Notes under the pieces: model-generated
The model's database searches: none
What the model was told of the DNA's origin: nothing
What the model saw: only the letters and a program-made list of their open reading frames with translations
NCBI GenBank assembly: GCA_000092065.1
Contig: CP000594.1
DNA: 64,000 bases
Strand: one strand, 5' to 3'
From: Ostreococcus lucimarinus
Lineage: Eukaryota
Position numbers and translations under genes: made by a program
Shown here: positions 3,055 to 59,751 of the stretch, one piece after another
Layout of the letters: each line of letters starts with the position of its first letter
Position numbering within the stretch: position 1 is the first letter of the stretch

Positions 3055-5040
3055 TTACTCCCAGGACTCGTCGTCATCGTCTTCAGCCGCGGTGGTCGTG
3101 AGTGCGCCGTGATTTTTGTTCCATTCTTCATGGAATTCAACGTCTGCTCTCGTCACAGAAGGGCGCACTTGCTTAGCGGCGCGGCGAATGTCGGCCAATA
3201 CGATGGGTCTGAGAGTACTTGGCGAGAGCGGACCTTGAACGTCCTTTGTCTTTTGAAACGTCTCACGAACGGGCGCTCTCGCGGCTTCTTGGATGAGATG
3301 TTTCATGTCAGATCCCGAGTAGCCGTCAGTTTTCTCGCAAATTAAATCCAAGTCGGCATCGGTGAGGTTGTGCGCGACGCCTTTGCCAGAGCTGAGCGTA
3401 CGAAGAACCATGTCCCGCCTCGCGGCGGCGCACGGAAGAGGGATGTACAGCTGCTTAGGCATGCGCCGTCGAGCGCCATCATCGAGCTCTTGCGGCCTAT
3501 TCGTCGCTCCGATGAGCAACAATCTGTCGTTCTCACCGCCGCCTAAACCGTCCATTTGTACTAAAAATTCCGTCTTCATGCGACGCGAGCTCTCGTGCTC
3601 GCCGTCCGATTTACGAGCGGAGAGCAATGAATCGATCTCGTCCACGAAAATCACGGCGGGAGATAGGTGACGAGCGACGGCGAAGAGCGCACGAACCATT
3701 TTTTCGCCTTCACCAATCCACTTACTCGTCAAACTCGAGGCAGAGATCGAGAAGAACGTCGCGCCGCACTGACTCGCAACGGCGCGACCGATCAAAGTCT
3801 TACCAGTACCGGGCGGACCAAAGAGGAGCAAGCCTTTTGGCACAGCACGTGCGCCTACGAACAATTCTGGATTCATCATCGGCCACACCGCGAGCTCTTG
3901 TACCGCCGCTTTCGGGTGCTCCAAGCCCGCGATGCTGTCCCAATCCACGCTCTCGTGCTTGTCCAAAATCTCGCTCACCACTCGTTCGATGATTTCTCTA
4001 TCAATCTTAAGGATATCCTCCGCGATCGCTTCGCCGTTAGGGGATAGCTTTTGCATCACGGCTTCACTGAAAGGCTGCGCGTCGTCTTCGTTGCTCTCAT
4101 TCTGATTCGGCTTCACTCGCTGCCCATTCCCGTTCCCGCCGCCGTACGGAGGCACAAAGCCGCCCCGCCCGTACGTTCGAGTCGTTCCATTCGCTTCCCT
4201 CGCCGTGCGATACTGTGCTGTCGCCGGAGGTAAGCCTTTCGCCGCGTGCTCTAAATCCAATCTCTCTCCAGCGCTCATGAATCGTGTCGGTGGCTTATTC
4301 GCCGCGTCGCCCTCTCCTTTTCCCGACCACCTCGACGCCGGCTCGCCACCCTTTCTATTTCTCTTATTTTTCGGACTCTTTCTCGGACTCGTCTTTCTGT
4401 CCTTAAGTCCCGGTCGTTCGAACTGTTTCTGTCGCTTCGGCGCGCCGCCGCCGATCCCGATCCCCCCATCGCGCGCCGCCGGCGCCGGCGCCGCTCGCCG
4501 CGGTTCCAAGTATCGATTTAAATCCGCGTCGCCCAAAATTTCCATCTCGTCGTCGTCCTCCAACGTCACGATCGGCGGTGGCGGCACCCCCCAAGCGCTC
4601 GTCGTCTTTTTCGCCAGCATCGCATCGACCGCCTCGTAATTCGGCCGCTTGACGACTGTCTCATCCTTCCCTCCCGTCGTCGTCGTCGCCGTTCCCCTCG
4701 TCACCCGTTCCTCTCGCGCCGAATCCGACCCCTCATCGCTCGATTTTATCTCCGCCCCGTCCTTCGTTTCGACCTCACCCTGCCGCGCGTGCATCTCCCG
4801 TCGCACGTCTTCCATCTGCGCCGTGATTTTCGCCAGAACGGGCGCGATCATCTTCGCATCCGCGCTCGACGCCCGCATCGATGGTTGCAACAGCTCGCGC
4901 TGGGAGATTAACAATTCGAGCGCCTTGGTGTGGTTTCCGTCGCGTCGCGCGTCCGCGATGTCCTTGCGCATGGCGCCTAAACGCGCTAAGATCGCGGCGC
5001 CGTCGCCCATGGCGCGTCGGCGCGACGCGACGCGGCTCAA
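3055..5040 (-). CDS. Meiotic-clade AAA ATPase (spastin/fidgetin/katanin-like).
   Basis: Walker A GPPGTGKT, Walker B VIFVDEIDSL, and a C-terminal FHEEWNKNHG-type motif. Continuous 661-aa ORF. Confidence 0.85.
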   Translation of the reverse strand: MSRVASRRRAMGDGAAILARLGAMRKDIADARRDGNHTKALELLISQRELLQPSMRASSADAKMIAPVLAKITAQMEDVRREMHARQGEVETKDGAEIKSSDEGSDSAREERVTRGTATTTTGGKDETVVKRPNYEAVDAMLAKKTTSAWGVPPPPIVTLEDDDEMEILGDADLNRYLEPRRAAPAPAARDGGIGIGGGAPKRQKQFERPGLKDRKTSPRKSPKNKRNRKGGEPASRWSGKGEGDAANKPPTRFMSAGERLDLEHAAKGLPPATAQYRTAREANGTTRTYGRGGFVPPYGGGNGNGQRVKPNQNESNEDDAQPFSEAVMQKLSPNGEAIAEDILKIDREIIERVVSEILDKHESVDWDSIAGLEHPKAAVQELAVWPMMNPELFVGARAVPKGLLLFGPPGTGKTLIGRAVASQCGATFFSISASSLTSKWIGEGEKMVRALFAVARHLSPAVIFVDEIDSLLSARKSDGEHESSRRMKTEFLVQMDGLGGGENDRLLLIGATNRPQELDDGARRRMPKQLYIPLPCAAARRDMVLRTLSSGKGVAHNLTDADLDLICEKTDGYSGSDMKHLIQEAARAPVRETFQKTKDVQGPLSPSTLRPIVLADIRRAAKQVRPSVTRADVEFHEEWNKNHGALTTTAAEDDDDESWE

Positions 5041-46595: not shown

Positions 46596-49430
46596 CTATG
46601 ACTTCTCTTCGCTAGTTTCATCAACAGTCACCCAACTCGACGTTGGATTCGCTGTTTGCTTCACATCGTCCTTCTCTTCTGTTTCCTTATCGTCTTTCTT
46701 CTCTTCGTCGGGTTGAACCGCCTGAGGCTTGAAAGCGTTTCGTTGCGCGGCCGTCAAACTCTCGCCGCGAGGCGGCGAAGCGATACCCGGTTTCGATTTC
46801 TTCAAATTCTCCCCTGACTCTCCCGGTGATGCATCGTCCAAGCCAGGTGGTGGACTAATGGATCGTCCCCGCTTGCCCAACTCACCGTGCGTCGGCCCAG
46901 TGTCGACTTCATCCTCGAACACCGAGTGCGCCATGGGCGGCGGCGCAAAGCGCGAACCTTGGAAGTGGAGTACGGGCGGACTGTGAACTGCAGCTAAGTG
47001 CGGAGGCTGCTCGACGCCCGAGTCTGGATCATCATCGGATTCGAAGTAATCTTCTTCATCTTTGCTCATCGAGCTATCACGCCTCGCGCGCTGCTCTGAG
47101 AGCGCCTGCGCCGCCGCAATTTCTTGTCTCCCGTACGCCGTGGGGGCAACTCCGGCAAGCATAACTCCCGGGGGAAGCTCGATCGTCGTTGCGCTAAGGC
47201 CTTGCTGGTATCGAAGCTTGAGCAATCTAAACGTATCGACGTAGTACACCTCTTCGAACCACTCTTCGTACTTTTCTACTAGATGATGGATCAAGTTTCG
47301 AATGTTTTCACGACGAATAAAGTCGATCAATTCGAGCACGGAGCTGTTCAACAAGTTGTACTTGTCGCCATTAATCTTGAAGACTTTCATCACAGGATCG
47401 AATGCATTCATTTTAATGAAGTAGCGGTTGTAGAACTCATCTTTCAGGCTCACGCACGCGCGCAAGAAACGAATGGCTGACACCACGACGTACTTTTCTT
47501 TGCGCTCTGTGAGATGAAGGACGTGCTGCAACACGTGATTCCTCAGCATGTAATACTTGATTCGATATTGATGATTCTGCACCAAGAAGATGAGCAGATC
47601 GACGATCTTCGTAAGCGCCCATGGAGGGACGCTCTTTTCGTCGGGCGTGACGTCTTCTTTGCCGAGGGTTATGCGTGCCACCACCGCATCCATGTGCTTG
47701 TCGTAAAAGATGTCCAAAAGTTTATCCTTGTCTGAGGACGTGCCCTCCATCGTCTCCGGATCCATCAAAAACAACAAAATTTCCAAGTACGTCGCCTGAA
47801 TTCCGTCGCTCCCGACAAGAAACAGGCGCACTAATTCCGAGAGCATGTTCCGCTCCGCCGAGCTAGCTTGTTGCACCATGAAGTCTCGAAGCACCGCTGG
47901 ATCGTTTTGCAAGCTAGACATGATGACGTCCGCGGCTTTTAACTGCGAATATTCACCACCATGAATTAAGATGTCCGTCAACACGTCAAACAGCCCGTGG
48001 TTTTGCAGAGTTGAAAATACTTGCAAACGCGAGGCGTTTTGCAGGTGCCTCGCCAGAGTGCACAACTCTTGAAGGAATCCTACCAGGTCGTTCCAGTCTT
48101 CATCGCCGGGTTTGGACGCTTTTAACCTTTTGAATAACTCCCCGAAGAATTCTGGATCTCGATGGAGCTCTTGCACCACCTCGACGTTGTTACACATCAT
48201 CATCGACGTGAGCGTGCTAAACGCCGAGTCGTCGAGTGCACGAGGAAGAATGACATCTTTGAGATACCCTAAACGGCACGTCTGATGGATTTTCTCGCGA
48301 ATCATCGTATTTGTGATCGGTACCACCTCTTTAAAGGCGACATTTTTCTTTAAAAACTGTCGATGATGAACCCGCTCGATTTGGTCCGGGTCGTACTCCA
48401 ACGCGCCCACGAAGTCGAATACAAATTCTTCGCTCAGTAACGTTTCGTACAGACTCGGATCGTTCAGCATCACCATCGCCCTGAATATGGCGTAGAACAA
48501 ATGCAAGTTCTCGATGTCGTCCACGTCTTCGCACTGCCTGAATAGCTCGAATAGCCTGGGCAGATACTCTTTCGATTTCAAAATTTGCATCGGGATGCGC
48601 TCTCGAGCAAACAGCGAGCTCCCCGAGATGAGGTTGTAAAGCTGCTCCAAATTCTTCGTCTCGGGCTCGGGAAGTTCTATTTGCACGTCACGTTGCAGTC
48701 CTATGTATCTCACGCCGCCTTGCGCCTCGACGGCCTGAAACTGAAGCAGCTCTGACCCGACGTCCATCGCCGCCACCTTGGAACCGTCCTCCAAAGGCAA
48801 TCCTCCCGCGAGCTGCTCCACATCACCACCAGTCTGCTGCATGTACGCCCTCTGTACCGATTTGATCTGTTCCCAAATAAAGTTACATCCCATCCCTTCC
48901 TGAAAGCTCAGCGCTATGTCCGTCTCGAGCTCGGCGTCGACCCAGGAAATAATGGTCTCGTCCTCTTGTCTCGAGTAAAATCCCACCTCAGGCGATATCG
49001 CGTGCACTAAAAGCGGTTCTTGACTGTGTTCAGACATCACCACCAACCCAACCGATCCCGATTGCTGCGGAATCGCGAGAGACCCGTCAGTCGCGTCGTC
49101 TACGCGCGCGCGCCAGTCGTTCATTCGCACCTCCATGTACTCGCACGACGCGAACCCCGTGCCTTTATCGTCCCAATGTCCTCGGTCGTTCAGCCTGTAC
49201 AGCTTCACCCGCGCCATGGCGTTCCTTTTCTCTCCATCTTGCGCCGAAATCACCGAGCCCGGAACGTCGAGGTCGTCCGCCGCGTCGCCTCGCCGCGCCA
49301 CCAGAATCGTCTCCTCTTCCCTCGCGTCCCCCACCGTCGCGTCCGCCGCCGTCGTCGACGCCTCGATCGCGTCTCGCGCGTCGTCATCCCCGCCTTCATC
49401 CGCGCCGTCCATCGCGTCTGAATTCTCCAT
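46596..49430 (-). CDS. Protein phosphatase 4 regulatory subunit 3 (PP4R3/SMEK/Psy2).
   Basis: N-terminal EVH1/RanBD-like RVKLYRLNDRGHWDDKGTGFASCEY, then DUF625/ARM-like repeats over about 700 aa. The stop lies only 25 nt from the stop of the convergent DnaJ gene. Confidence 0.8.
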   Translation of the reverse strand: MENSDAMDGADEGGDDDARDAIEASTTAADATVGDAREEETILVARRGDAADDLDVPGSVISAQDGEKRNAMARVKLYRLNDRGHWDDKGTGFASCEYMEVRMNDWRARVDDATDGSLAIPQQSGSVGLVVMSEHSQEPLLVHAISPEVGFYSRQEDETIISWVDAELETDIALSFQEGMGCNFIWEQIKSVQRAYMQQTGGDVEQLAGGLPLEDGSKVAAMDVGSELLQFQAVEAQGGVRYIGLQRDVQIELPEPETKNLEQLYNLISGSSLFARERIPMQILKSKEYLPRLFELFRQCEDVDDIENLHLFYAIFRAMVMLNDPSLYETLLSEEFVFDFVGALEYDPDQIERVHHRQFLKKNVAFKEVVPITNTMIREKIHQTCRLGYLKDVILPRALDDSAFSTLTSMMMCNNVEVVQELHRDPEFFGELFKRLKASKPGDEDWNDLVGFLQELCTLARHLQNASRLQVFSTLQNHGLFDVLTDILIHGGEYSQLKAADVIMSSLQNDPAVLRDFMVQQASSAERNMLSELVRLFLVGSDGIQATYLEILLFLMDPETMEGTSSDKDKLLDIFYDKHMDAVVARITLGKEDVTPDEKSVPPWALTKIVDLLIFLVQNHQYRIKYYMLRNHVLQHVLHLTERKEKYVVVSAIRFLRACVSLKDEFYNRYFIKMNAFDPVMKVFKINGDKYNLLNSSVLELIDFIRRENIRNLIHHLVEKYEEWFEEVYYVDTFRLLKLRYQQGLSATTIELPPGVMLAGVAPTAYGRQEIAAAQALSEQRARRDSSMSKDEEDYFESDDDPDSGVEQPPHLAAVHSPPVLHFQGSRFAPPPMAHSVFEDEVDTGPTHGELGKRGRSISPPPGLDDASPGESGENLKKSKPGIASPPRGESLTAAQRNAFKPQAVQPDEEKKDDKETEEKDDVKQTANPTSSWVTVDETSEEKS

Positions 49431-49729
49431 CGCCACGACGTCGCGTCGACGCAGATTTCAATCGCCTCGAATCTTTCCTCGTCTCCGCGCGCGTCGCGCG
49501 GAGACCGAGCGTTCGTCTCCCGCGCGCCGGACGCGCTCGATCGCGCGTCGCGCGGTGCCAACCGTTCGTCTCCGCGCGTTCGCCGTCGCGTCGCGCGAAC
49601 GCGCGCCCGCGCGGTCGCGTCGCGCGTCGACGTCTGCGCGCGCGCGGCGCGCATTCGCGCGACGCCTCGACCCGAAACATAAAAAAAAATCACGAAAAGT
49701 CTCGCACCGTCGCGCGCGCGAACGGTATC

Positions 49730-49734
49730 AAAAA
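49730..49734 (-). terminator. RNA polymerase III T-run terminator for tRNA-Leu.
   Basis: A5 on the plus strand (T5 on the minus strand) about 5 nt after the discriminator base. Confidence 0.5.
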
Positions 49735-49739
49735 GTAGT

Positions 49740-49844
49740 GACAATGACGGGATTTGAACCCGCGCGCGTGAGCAGTGGAAAGTTTCGCGCGTCGATCCGC
49801 GTGCGGCCTAAATCCACCCCCTTAGACCACTCGGGCACATTGTC
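49740..49844 (-). tRNA. tRNA-Leu(UAG) with a roughly 20 to 26 nt intron.
   Basis: Minus strand: GACAATG TG CCCGAGTGGTCTAAGGG G GTGGA TTTAGG[intron]...TCCAC TGCTCACGCGCGC GGGTTCAAATCCCGT CATTGTC A. Perfect 7-bp acceptor stem, 3-bp D-stem and long variable arm (type II), loop UUUAGG (anticodon UAG) and A73 discriminator; followed by a T5 run. Confidence 0.7.
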
Positions 49845-50042
49845 GCGCGGTCGGCGGGCGCGCCGGCGTCGTCGCGCGAGGCGCGGATGGGGGTTAAGAG
49901 GGCGCGCGGTCGCGCGCGGCGGCGCGCGGGACTCGAGACCGAGCGAACGCGCGCGACGGTCGCGCGTGAGGATCGAGCGTTGGATACACGCGCGCTACGT
50001 GCTAATGATGATCTACGAGGGCGAGACGGGGACGAAGGACGA

Positions 50043-50517
50043 TCACGGCGACGGCGGCGCGGCGGAGACTTTGGCGGCGCGCGACGCGGGGTCGAGCGCG
50101 GCCGCCTTCTTCAGAGCCTTCTCCACGCCCTGGATCAATCTGGCGTTTTTCTGCGAGTCCGTGGAACGACGCGCGCGGCGTCAGTCGTCGAGTTTCGCGC
50201 GCGGGCGGCGCGCGAGCGAAGGATGCGAGCGTCGCGCGTCGACGGCGCGCACCAGGGCGTTGCGTTGGCGCGTTTGGGACATCTTCGCGAACGCGTGCGT
50301 CTTCCAGATGATCCCGCCTGCGCGCGAGCGACCGCGCGTGACGCGCGCGATGCGTCAGTCGATGATCGCGTTCGGCGCTCGCGCGTCTCGGCGCGCGCGT
50401 CGGGCGCCAGCGGTCGCGCGCGATCGAGTCGAGGTCGAATCCAGCGGTGCGCGCGCGCGACGTACCTCGCGCGAACGGGCCTTTCTTGACCGCCATGAGC
50501 ACGAACGAGGTGAACAT
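50043..50517 (-). CDS. Predicted 3-exon small protein (about 74 aa) of unknown function, approximately complement(50043..50150, 50253..50317, 50466..50517).
   Basis: Found only through splice grammar. Exon 1, MFTSFVLMAVKKGPFAR, ends at GTACGTCGCG; the intron has a CGACTGACGC branch box and a CGCGCAG acceptor. Exon 2, GIIWKTHAFAKMSQTRQRNAL, ends at GTGCGCGCC; the second intron has a CGACTGACGCC branch box and a CGCAG acceptor. Exon 3 is KNARLIQGVEKALKKAAALDPASRAAKVSAAPPSP*. Phases are consistent. Confidence 0.45.
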
Positions 50518-50781
50518 GGCGTCGACGAACGCGTCGACGCGCGCGCGTGCGTCGCGCGCGACGTCGCGCGGGACGGTGCGGGACAGCGCGCGACAGTGCG
50601 GGACGGTGTTCGAGGACGGCAAAGGGCGCTCGTCCAGTCGTCGCGCGGGCAAAAAAATGCCGAGACCTACAACATCGACTTGTCTATTGCAGTTTCTATT
50701 GCGGATTCGAGTCGCCCCGTGTCGTGACCGTCGCGGCGCTGAAGCTTACGGTTTCTTTCCTACACGATGTAACAATGACTT

Positions 50782-51564
50782 CTATTCTAGGCCGAGTCCG
50801 AGGATTTCGGCCGACTCGCGCGTCAATTCTGCGATCCGCACGCGCCCTTTCTCGGTGATGAAAGCCGCCACGCGTTCCATCTCTTCGCGCGAGACGTAAA
50901 TGAACGTCCCGCGGTCGTCCATGATGCCCGTGATTCGCCCCTCGGCTTCGAGCATTCGCACGCGCCGCACGGCGTCGGCGGTTCGCAAGCCAAATTTGGC
51001 GGCTAGTTCCTCCAAAACGACCACTTTTTTCGTCTTGATCTCGTCGGCAAACGCAACGAGCGCTTCCTCAGACTCATTTGCGGACGTCTCGTCCGCGGAA
51101 CTCGCCTCTTTGCCGCCGAATAATCCCCTCCGAGTCCCGCGCTGCTTGTCCTCCAGTCGACGCCGCTCCGCGCGCGCGGCGGCGGCGGCTTCCATCTCCG
51201 CCCTATCCTTCGCCTCGCGCTCGGCCCACTTTCTCCTATACTTTTCCTCTTTCTGTTCCTTCCACGTCAGCCCTCGCTGCTCGCGCTGCGCCGCCGCTTC
51301 GGCCTCCGCCTCCGCCTCGGCGCGCGCGCGCATCGCATCCGCCTCGCCGTTCGCGTCTTCATCCCTCCCTCGTCGTCTCCGCGCCCCCCCCCCGCGCGCC
51401 TGACCACGTCGCGCGCCTCCTCCGCCGTCGTCGTGCGCGTCTGCCTCCTCCAGCGTCGCTCTCATCCGCGCCTCGTGCGCGCGCCCGAGCACCAGCACCG
51501 AAGTCACGCCGAGCGCGAACAGCACCACGAACGCCACCAGCGCGCTCACCAGCGCGCGATCCAT
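50782..51564 (-). CDS. DDRGK1: DDRGK domain protein 1 (UFM1-system ER adaptor, DDRGK1/UFBP1).
   Basis: N-terminal TM (LVAFVVLFALGVTSVLVL), a charged coiled region, and the C-terminal GIMDDRGTFIYVSREEMERVAAFITEKGRVRIAEL (DDRGK/winged-helix motif). Confidence 0.8.
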   Translation of the reverse strand: MDRALVSALVAFVVLFALGVTSVLVLGRAHEARMRATLEEADAHDDGGGGARRGQARGGGARRRRGRDEDANGEADAMRARAEAEAEAEAAAQREQRGLTWKEQKEEKYRRKWAEREAKDRAEMEAAAAARAERRRLEDKQRGTRRGLFGGKEASSADETSANESEEALVAFADEIKTKKVVVLEELAAKFGLRTADAVRRVRMLEAEGRITGIMDDRGTFIYVSREEMERVAAFITEKGRVRIAELTRESAEILGLGLE

Positions 51565-51831: not shown

Positions 51832-52704
51832 ATGTCCGGCATCGCGCGCGCGCCGACGCGCGCCCGCGCGCCCGCGTCGTCGTCGTCGTCGTCGCGGGAC
51901 GGCGCGCGACGACGCGCCCCGACGCGCGCGCGACGCGACCGCGCGCGCGCCTCGCGCGTCGTCGCGCGCGCGTCCGCGCCGGCGACGGAGTCGTACTCGT
52001 TCTTCAACCTCGCCCGGGCGGAGTTCCCGGAAAACTGGCGCGAGCCCGCGGTGAAGGTGCGGTACGAGGACTCGGCGCTGGACCTGGCGCTCATGGCGTG
52101 GTTCATGGCGAAGATCGGCGCGGCTATCGACGCGCCGAAACCGAAAGAGATATCGTACGACGAGTTCATCGCGCTGTGTTTCTTGCAGATGAAAGGACGA
52201 GACGCGGTAGGGATGGGTGACGTGACGGCGGGGGTGATTCGGTCGCTGGTGCCGCCGGGAGGGAACGCGGCGTTCAGGGCGCTGTTCCCGCCGAATCGAT
52301 TTTCTTGCGAGCTCAACGCGACGATCACGAAAATCGTGTTCGCGTGGATGGTGGGACCGATGGAGGTGGAAACGACCACGGAGAATGATCTTGGGATCGA
52401 GATGGCGTCCAAGGTGCACATAAAGAAGTGTCGGTGGCTTCAAGAGAGCGGGTGCACGGCGATGTGCGTGAACATGTGCAAGTGCGCAACGCAAGAAGTT
52501 TTCACGGACGATTTCGGGTTGCCGCTCACCATCAAGCCGAATTTTGAAAACAAAAGTTGCGATTTCTACTTTGGACTCACACCACCGCCGATTGAAAAGG
52601 ATGAAGCGTTGTTGTTCGGATGCAATGCGTTGTGCGCGACGGCGGCGCCGGATTCGGAAGGCACGCCGTGTCATAAACTCCGTCCGTACGAAGGAGAGCT
52701 TTAG
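51832..52704 (+). CDS. D27: DWARF27-family beta-carotene isomerase-like protein (DUF4033), plastid precursor.
   Basis: CRWLQESGCTAMCVNMCKCATQEVFTDDFGLPLTIKPNFENKSCDFYFG matches the D27 family; Ser/Arg-rich transit peptide. Confidence 0.8.
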   Translation: MSGIARAPTRARAPASSSSSSRDGARRRAPTRARRDRARASRVVARASAPATESYSFFNLARAEFPENWREPAVKVRYEDSALDLALMAWFMAKIGAAIDAPKPKEISYDEFIALCFLQMKGRDAVGMGDVTAGVIRSLVPPGGNAAFRALFPPNRFSCELNATITKIVFAWMVGPMEVETTTENDLGIEMASKVHIKKCRWLQESGCTAMCVNMCKCATQEVFTDDFGLPLTIKPNFENKSCDFYFGLTPPPIEKDEALLFGCNALCATAAPDSEGTPCHKLRPYEGEL

Positions 52705-52948: not shown

Positions 52949-54160
52949 TCACGCGCTCGAGGAAGACTTGACCAAAGCTTGCGCCTTGATAACGAGGTCT
53001 TTGTAGTCCTTACTCTTGCAAACTTGGAGCACGAGTTCGCGGAATGCCATGTCGACGTGTCCAGAGATTTTGGACGAAAGCAATTTCCACCGTCGCATGA
53101 TTCGAGACAAATCACGGCCCCGAACAGTCGACGCCCATGGCACAGCTTCGGCAGTCATCGATCTGTACTTGATGACGTTATTCAACATCTCGTAGTCTTG
53201 TTCGACATCCCACTCGCCCGTACTCGTCATTGGAGGCGAGATTTGATACCATCGTTGCAAACAAGCCTGCTCGTTTCGAGTGCCCATTTTGGCAGAGATG
53301 GTGACCCAGTTGATATTGTCGCGAAGTGAAAGGTGTTCGTTGCCCGTTCCCGGCCCGCATCCAGCTTCCGCGCCTCGCTGGCGGAAGTGTTCCTTCACGA
53401 GCTCACACAACTTGTCGGTTTCTTCCTGGCTCCAGTGCCCCGACTTTTTGTGTTCACCTCCCTTGGCGAGACGCCACTTGTCACGGCACGCCGACGCCGG
53501 CCTGCCGACTATTTCCGCGATCTTGGACCATTTCGGGCCCAGTTTCGTGTATTGCTCGAGCAAAGCTTCCGTCTCCTCCTTCTGCCACTTCCCCGACTTC
53601 GACTTTTTGTCCATGTTTCTCAAAATCCAGCCGTAAATTTGCTTGGCGTTTCTTGTCGGCGTCTCGCGAGCGACTTCGATAAACGCGCGTCGCTCAGATA
53701 GCGGTAAGTGTGCACCTTTACCTCCTTGCTTTTGACGACGGTTGAACAAGAACTCATAGTTGCCATTCATGAAATCTTCTGCGAGCCCGTGCTCGTTGGC
53801 CCATTTCTCGAGCGAGCGCTTCATCTGTTCCACCTCGAGCGTGCTCCACTGCCCGAATCTCTGCCCCGGAAACTTGACGTCCCACTCGCTACTATCAGAA
53901 ACAGTTTGCAATTCCTTCTCCGAAGCCTGCGCCACCGGCAAGTCTGCATCCTTTGACTTGTCGTGCATCAACGCCGCGTACGCCGCGTCGTCGTCCAGCT
54001 GTCGCTTGCTCAACGGCGCCCTGACGTCGAGTTCCGCCTTACGTTTCTTCGATTCCTTCTTCATGTGAGCCTTCTTAATCGTCTCAGTCGCGGCGGCGAT
54101 ATCAGCCAACGCGATCGTCGCCGACTTCTCCGCCGGCTCCTCGCCTCGCGTGCGAGCCAT
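52949..54160 (-). CDS. Myb/SANT-repeat DNA-binding protein (Reb1/TTF1/DMTF1-like).
   Basis: Tandem Myb-like repeats: GKWQKEETEALLEQYTKLGPKWSKIAEIVGRPASACRDKWR and GHWSQEETDKLCELVKEHF. Confidence 0.65.
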   Translation of the reverse strand: MARTRGEEPAEKSATIALADIAAATETIKKAHMKKESKKRKAELDVRAPLSKRQLDDDAAYAALMHDKSKDADLPVAQASEKELQTVSDSSEWDVKFPGQRFGQWSTLEVEQMKRSLEKWANEHGLAEDFMNGNYEFLFNRRQKQGGKGAHLPLSERRAFIEVARETPTRNAKQIYGWILRNMDKKSKSGKWQKEETEALLEQYTKLGPKWSKIAEIVGRPASACRDKWRLAKGGEHKKSGHWSQEETDKLCELVKEHFRQRGAEAGCGPGTGNEHLSLRDNINWVTISAKMGTRNEQACLQRWYQISPPMTSTGEWDVEQDYEMLNNVIKYRSMTAEAVPWASTVRGRDLSRIMRRWKLLSSKISGHVDMAFRELVLQVCKSKDYKDLVIKAQALVKSSSSA

Positions 54161-59619: not shown

Positions 59620-59751
59620 TCCTCCCTACCCGAATCGAACGGGTGACCCGCTGATTACCACGTGGTCCTTCGTTCGCGATGACGCTGTGACGCGCCGTAT
59701 TTCAGGAGTGTATCCTACAGTCAGCTGCTCTTCCATCTGAGCTAAGAGAGG
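59620..59751 (-). tRNA. tRNA-Tyr(GUA) with a 59-nt intron.
   Basis: Minus strand: CCTCTCT TA GCTC AGATGGAA GAGC A GCTGA CTGTAG[GATACACTCC...CACGTGGTA]A TCAGC GGGTC ACCCG TTCGATT CGGGT AGGGAGG A. Stems pair perfectly, the anticodon is GUA, and the intron lies at the canonical 37/38 position; a T7 run follows 12 nt downstream. Confidence 0.8.

Follow-up and report, generated by a model that had tools for sequence, protein, structure and literature searches.

Does the gap of approximately 940 nt between a DDRGK-domain gene and a tRNA-Leu(UAG) gene in the Ostreococcus lucimarinus contig CP000594.1 (assembly GCA_000092065.1) hold a gene of its own and, if so, to which family does its product belong? 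An earlier note on the 64,000-nt stretch of this contig that was analysed here (hereafter, the window) had placed in the gap a minus-strand micro-gene of three short exons, recognised from textbook splice signals and compatible phases, and had guessed that its product is a small protein of ribosomal or organellar-ribosomal type. The evidence assembled below indicates that the micro-gene is almost certainly a real coding gene and that it is, with a probability of roughly 0.85, a nuclear, spliced orthologue of mL60 (yeast MRPL31, Arabidopsis At1g27435, Pfam PF09784), which is a small protein, specific to mitochondria, of the mitoribosomal large subunit.

The Gene Model

Scripted splicing of the minus strand gave a coding sequence of three exons and two GT..AG introns, 225 nt long including the TGA stop codon, which translates to the 74-aa protein MFTSFVLMAVKKGPFARGGIIWKTHAFAKMSQTRQRNALKNARLIQGVEKALKKAAALDPASRAAKVSAAPPSP (Table 1). 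The earlier three-exon model was reproduced base for base, down to the exact peptide, and its reading of the splice signals held as well: both introns carry branch motifs, the phases are compatible, and the intron positions and phases are conserved in Ostreococcus-type loci. The distance from the branch-site A to the acceptor is 37 nt in intron 1 and 30 nt in intron 2. The hallmark of the family, GG-[ILV]-x-W-K ... T-R-x-x-N, is encoded by exon 2, and exon 3 encodes a conserved helix part (KNxxLI..V...LKxAA) followed by a C-terminal tail that varies in sequence and length.

Table 1. Coordinates of the micro-gene, of its neighbours in the window, and of the probable third intron in other Ostreococcus-type loci (the last in the numbering of each locus).
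Feature	Position	Strand	Description
Exon 1 (CDS part)	50466..50517	-	52 nt; ATG at 50517; encodes MFTSFVLMAVKKGPFAR and the first base of Gly18; ends in phase 1
Intron 1	50318..50465	-	148 nt; GTACGT donor, branch motif CGACTGAC at 50361-50354, CGCAG acceptor
Exon 2	50253..50317	-	65 nt; encodes (G)GIIWKTHAFAKMSQTRQRNAL
Intron 2	50151..50252	-	102 nt; phase 0; GTGCGC donor, branch motif CGACTGAC at 50187-50180, CGCAG acceptor
Exon 3 (CDS part)	50043..50150	-	108 nt including TGA; encodes KNARLIQGVEKALKKAAALDPASRAAKVSAAPPSP; stop at 50045-50043
Myb	52949-54160		first in the minus-strand gene order
D27-like	51832-52704		on the opposite strand to the micro-gene
DDRGK-domain ORF	50782-51564	-	260 aa; directly upstream of the micro-gene
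tRNA-Leu(UAG)	49738-49844	-	anticodon loop interrupted by a 26-nt intron; ~200 nt downstream of the micro-gene
PP4R3	46596-49436		last in the minus-strand order, beyond tRNA-Leu
Third intron (probable), L054	3369-3436
Third intron (probable), L058	~3397-3483
Third intron (probable), L063	~3226-3309

Taken alone, the splice signals on which the earlier reader relied are weak evidence and do not discriminate statistically in this DNA: the loose pattern GT[AG]CG..[AG]CTGAC..YAG has 23 matches on the two strands of the window, compared with 17.3 +/- 5.0 in dinucleotide shuffles. The longer branch motif CGACTGAC is enriched in the window, with 13 occurrences compared with 5.0 +/- 2.0 in dinucleotide-preserving shuffles. 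As splice grammar alone is not above chance in a window this rich in GC, the reality of the gene rests on comparative evidence.

The statement that no entry in the list of open reading frames corresponds to the gene requires some refinement. No entry equals the gene, but the list does contain a 216-aa ORF that includes exon 1 in frame, and two short listed ORFs cover parts of exons 2 and 3. It should be noted that this 216-aa ORF (50002-50652, minus strand) and a 530-aa ORF (49135-50727, plus strand), both with a high Arg and Ala content, overlap the locus on opposite strands. They are not genes; rather, they are stop-poor frames typical of GC-rich CGCG-repeat DNA, and long spurious ORFs of this kind show why ORF-based callers mislead in such DNA.

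Orthologous Loci of the Ostreococcus Type

The initial protein search returned only two prokaryote-style read-through ORFs, both from environmental contigs; one of them holds exon 1, whereas the other holds exon 2, an in-frame intron 2, and exon 3 (intron 2 of locus L001 is in frame and was read through by the prokaryotic gene caller, P0001). Both contigs are syntenic with the window, having DDRGK or D27-like upstream and PP4R3 downstream, and hand splicing of both yielded full orthologues with intron positions and phases as in the window. A metagenome scan found 62 loci. The position and phase of intron 1 are kept in L001, L003, L057, L054, L058, and the O. tauri locus L069; the position of intron 2 is kept in all Ostreococcus-type loci examined; and four further Ostreococcus-type lineages share the intron positions and phases together with the exon lengths of 52 and 65 nt. 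The exons and introns of these loci differ in conservation. Exon 1 is 85-94% identical among Ostreococcus-type loci at a constant 52 nt, and exon 2 is 75-91% identical among orthologous loci at a constant 65 nt, compared with 56-79% identity for intron 1 (which ranges from 148 to 162 nt over four measured loci) and 55-68% for intron 2. A branch motif, ACTGAC or CTGAC, occurs in every one of the orthologous introns read. The coding sequence is under purifying selection, with dN/dS of 0.07-0.53 in all 10 of the 10 pairs tested.

An annotated orthologue is present in O. tauri, where a 67-aa 'unnamed product' (P0032) has the same splicing and lies in the syntenic position (L069 3980-4479, CAID01000015.2). 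It is 72% identical to the window peptide over a local BLASTP match covering 64% of the query, shares both intron positions, and likewise has DDRGK upstream and PP4R3 downstream; indeed, the O. tauri gene order is Myb, D27-like, DDRGK, the gene, PP4R3, DnaJ, and the order from Myb to PP4R3 is that of the window. Unlike the window gene, P0032 is annotated from the second ATG, and no tRNA-Leu gene separates it from PP4R3; it also bears no functional name. The annotation of O. tauri gives introns in 19% of genes, with a mean length of 140 nt, and 89% of them are validated by RNA-seq (PMC4378021). The O. tauri model thereby lends indirect support to the presumed expression and splicing of the micro-gene in O. 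lucimarinus.

Intronless Homologues and the History of the Introns

The earlier note had suggested looking for the locus in other Mamiellales, and it is indeed conserved there, with the same introns in Ostreococcus-type loci and as intronless homologues in Mamiellales-like contigs of low and high GC. Uninterrupted ORFs of 68-88 aa span both junction positions in L013, L024, and L035 (contig GC of 44-49%), L044 (37%), and L067 (69%); one example begins MFITKFLQMAVKKGPFARGGLKWKGHGAFKVTQTRKTNAKKRLKYVNENDSVLKEAAASDP. These ORFs often adjoin a D27-like gene, as in the window. The labels 'Bathycoccus-like' and 'Micromonas-like' used for such contigs derive only from GC (0.44-0.49 and 0.69, respectively) and synteny. 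A probable third intron, with a GTACG donor, an ACTGAC branch, and a CAG acceptor, lies in the region of the C-terminal tail in L054, L058, and L063; neither the window nor O. tauri has it. The L054 copy measures 66 nt and keeps the frame, so that its read-through also leaves an open frame. The land-plant orthologue P0099 (GCA_008831285.2) contains a single phase-0 intron after RVWQ, which corresponds to G47|V48 of the window peptide. This site lies eight residues downstream of Ostreococcus intron 2 and thus differs from the positions of both Ostreococcus introns.

One tentative reading of this distribution is that the Ostreococcus lineage acquired the two introns, and in some Ostreococcus-type lineages a third, inside a coding sequence of only 225 nt; the lack of introns in the Bathycoccus-like and Micromonas-like copies and the different site of the land-plant intron would fit such a gain. 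Alternatively, introns may have been lost in the other genera.

The Neighbourhood of the Gene

The micro-gene lies on a nuclear-type contig among nuclear neighbours (PP4R3, DDRGK, Myb, and D27-like) and contains GT-AG introns with branch sites, which shows it to be nuclear-encoded. The adjacent tRNA-Leu(UAG) gene was found by Rfam RF00005 (48 bits) and by ARAGORN -i and was missed by ARAGORN in default mode. A tRNA-Leu(UAG) gene lies beside the mL60 gene in several other loci: it contains an intron in L001, L008, and L054, is intronless and on the opposite strand in L070 and L071, and is absent at the mL60 locus of O. tauri (L069), L003, and L017. With its intron option, ARAGORN also called a tRNA-Asn(GTT) with a 59-nt intron at 59620-59751 (minus strand) of the window; this call is doubtful because Rfam reports no tRNA there at the gathering threshold.

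The DDRGK ORF has a hydrophobic, membrane-anchor-like N-terminus (MDRALVSALVAFVVLFALGVTSVLVLG). It is 100% identical over 183 aa to XP_001421503.1 of O. lucimarinus CCE9901, which assigns the window to this species or to a nearly identical strain, and that gene model is probably truncated at the N-terminus because it comprises only the last 183 of the 260 residues. JGI auto-annotations within the 90% cluster of this protein read 'ribosomal protein S25' or 'MarR regulator'; both names seem to be misapplied to its winged-helix part. The placement of DDRGK also differs among lineages: it sits between the D27-like and mL60 genes in O. lucimarinus and O. tauri, whereas these two genes are divergent direct neighbours in L003, L017, L067, and L070. 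In L001, DDRGK is upstream of the mL60 gene and the contig ends before the position of D27-like. The difference represents a small synteny change, either an insertion or a loss.

Proposed Assignment to the mL60 Family

The guess of a ribosomal or organellar-ribosomal protein was borne out by profile searches, which led to mL60, a family of the mitochondrial large subunit. With a profile of only three orthologues (A1), the mL60 chains of plant mitoribosomes ranked first (E = 0.012). A profile of ten Mamiellales-type sequences derived from the loci (A2) matched the mL60 chain 9evs_1q at E = 1.7e-7, 9gyt_1q at E = 3.2e-7, and Arabidopsis At1g27435 (6xyw_AL) at E = 6.7e-6. A green-algal set of 15 sequences without land plants (A3) matched the plant mL60 chains at E = 5.5e-9 to 9e-9, the Chlamydomonas chain 7pkt_I, labelled 'mL63/57/60', at E = 6e-6, the Polytomella 8a22 chain labelled 'mL63' at E = 3e-4, and Neurospora mitochondrial L31 at E = 0.028. 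The broad profile A4 reaches the mL60 chains of Neurospora (2e-4) and yeast (4e-3); since it includes plant sequences, its matches to plants are not independent evidence. Furthermore, PF09784 ('Mitochondrial ribosomal protein L31') is matched by 12 of the 15 members of A3 (best E 3.3e-6) and by 23 of the 39 members of A4, and four relatives carry precomputed matches to it. An exhaustive HMM search of 1.84 billion representatives found 88 proteins at E <= 1e-3, nearly all of them small.

A Pfam search with the spliced peptide, which the earlier note had proposed as a check, was not productive: the single peptide had no significant match, and PF09784 itself gave none at E <= 10. The PF09784 model looks too insensitive for a peptide this short and diverged. 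When the window peptide was compared with the PDB by phmmer, mL60 was the top match, at a non-significant E = 0.34. As the window peptide alone falls short of significance, the assignment to mL60 depends on profiles built from its orthologues. Other identities considered were TMP_N, a sub-threshold Pfam match of the single peptide (E = 0.05) that was taken as noise, and the bS21 C-terminus, bL35, UPF0390/L10K, and TMA7, none of which appeared in the Pfam and PDB searches at E <= 10.

Comparison with structurally placed members of the family shows both common and divergent features. Plant mL60 (At1g27435, 6xyw AL; chain '1q' of 9evs and 9gyt) is 78-81 aa long, compared with 74 aa in Ostreococcus, and has the same order of elements, i.e., a hydrophobic N-terminus, VKK, GG-L-x-W-K, T-R-K-x-N-A-K, and a helix ending in VLK-x-A/C. 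The two are approximately 30% identical; Ostreococcus has GPFAR where plant mL60 has HDS before GG, as well as three extra residues (HAF) after WK. The Chlamydomonas reinhardtii chain 7pkt_I is longer (132 aa) and has G-G-R-x-W-N-P where Ostreococcus has G-G-I-I-W-K-T. Fungal mL60 (yeast MRPL31 and Neurospora 54S L31; PF09784 'L31') shares its Pfam family with many relatives of the window peptide; however, it is 110-131 aa long, and only its first ~45 residues align. The choice among the names mL60, mL63, and mL57 for the green-algal counterparts is a matter of labelling, and the depositors' labels differ (the Polytomella chain, 8a22_AI, which A3 matches without the aid of land plants, was deposited as 'mL63'). 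The main text of the Chlamydomonas mitoribosome paper does not mention the mL63/57/60 naming.

Architecture and Proposed Role of the Protein

The family architecture (~60-130 aa with a hydrophobic N-terminus, GG-x-x-W, a basic T-R-K-x-N stretch, and a long helix) is found in the window peptide, and the 38 proteins aligned from among the 88 matches of the HMM search share the layout of a hydrophobic N-terminal segment, VKK, GG-x-x-W, T-R-K-x-N, and a helix ending in VLK-x-AA. In the A2 and A4 alignments (39 sequences), W22 is invariant and G18, G19, N37, and L52 are nearly so. AlphaFold2 predicts a confident helix at residues 32-58 (pLDDT 79-93) within a model of middling overall confidence (pLDDT 69). 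Foldseek found 0 matches to this model in the PDB, as is to be expected because a short, extended ribosomal protein is unsuited to fold searches.

[quoted passage not shown] By homology, it is reasonable to assume that the pre-mRNA of the micro-gene sheds two spliceosomal introns and that the resulting basic protein of 74 aa, synthesised in the cytosol, enters the mitochondrion and becomes part of the large ribosomal subunit there. In such a position, the GG-x-x-W-K ... T-R-K-x-N segment and the long basic helix might serve as an rRNA- and protein-binding element. Both the import and the ribosomal position of the Ostreococcus product are proposed by analogy with these systems.

The start codon also deserves attention. 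In the only curated model of the gene, P0032 of O. tauri, the first residue corresponds to M8 (MAVKKGP...), and a start at this second ATG would shorten the O. lucimarinus product to 67 aa. Such a start is nonetheless unlikely. O. tauri has an in-frame ATG 21 nt upstream that encodes MFTSFFL, and an MF-x-S/T-x-hydrophobic segment is conserved at the protein level in all Mamiellales-type sequences, with substitutions that include synonymous ones. Because of this conservation, and because the segment can be aligned to the first residues of Chlamydomonas mL63/57/60 (MFFSRCVMVV) and of plant mL60, M1 appears more likely than M8 as the start. The A3 alignment to 7pkt_I, in which profile and chain (MFFS...) are both matched from residue 1 onwards, supports M1 as well. 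Given the conserved ATG 21 nt upstream, the O. tauri model probably lacks 7 residues at its N-terminus.

Alternative Readings

The frequency of the loose splice pattern, similar in shuffled and in genuine sequence, and the 216- and 530-aa spurious ORFs that GC-rich DNA produces over the locus might suggest that there is no gene at all, i.e., that splice-like signals and short frames have coincided in stop-poor DNA and that the region is a UTR or an intergenic spacer. This reading is barely credible, as it is already contradicted by the comparative data: exons and introns differ in conservation, exon lengths are fixed, dN/dS is below 1, homologues without introns continue across the junctions, synteny at the locus extends to other genera, and the homology to mL60 is significant. 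It is also very improbable that the gene functions in relatives and is a decaying or silent pseudogene in O. lucimarinus. To judge from the protein collection, the public protein set of O. lucimarinus lacks the product, but the gene has an uninterrupted frame, canonical splice and branch sites, and both a start and a stop codon in place. Moreover, loci with identical products recur in several environmental samples (L005-L010), and the metagenome scan revealed no other type of mL60-like locus of the same identity class.

A different objection concerns function. The protein might be real and conserved but non-mitoribosomal in Mamiellales, with its likeness to mL60 stemming either from a motif of a short basic helix or from divergence of a relative that took on another role. 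Searches with the single sequence do not reach significance, the protein is short, basic, and Ala-rich, and the fold search is uninformative, all of which would be compatible with this view. Nonetheless, we consider it quite unlikely. Profiles without land plants match only mL60-type chains, at 1e-7 to 1e-9 and over nearly the full length, including the hydrophobic N-terminus and with a matching total length, and A3 also reaches experimentally placed chains of two green-algal mitoribosomes. Likewise, no second mL60-like type of sequence was found among the Mamiellales-type contigs searched. The identification of the micro-gene as an mL60 orthologue accordingly remains the preferred reading.

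Conclusions

The family to which the micro-gene is assigned is already known, and its O. tauri orthologue is annotated, albeit unnamed; the data support the O. lucimarinus copy being an unannotated mL60 orthologue. In the protein collection (NCBI, UniRef, and other sources), no product of an mL60 gene from the O. lucimarinus, Micromonas, or Bathycoccus reference annotation was present, nor was a spliced full-length O. lucimarinus product of the micro-gene. The reference annotation seems to have overlooked the gene on account of its shortness and its two introns. Indeed, very short genes with several introns escape both eukaryotic and prokaryotic gene callers.

The mL60 gene is otherwise an ordinary housekeeping gene, and its recognition supplies a missing entry in the gene list of a reference picoeukaryote. 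If the introns were in fact gained within Ostreococcus, the gene would be a small, naturally occurring case in which introns arose recently in a genome where approximately 19% of genes bear introns, and such a gain might be linked to the expression of ribosomal-protein-type genes. For studies of mitoribosome evolution, it should be noted that inventories of mitoribosomal proteins count mL60 and other short proteins as 'absent' where only their annotation is missing; the locus described here shows that mL60 is present in Mamiellales.
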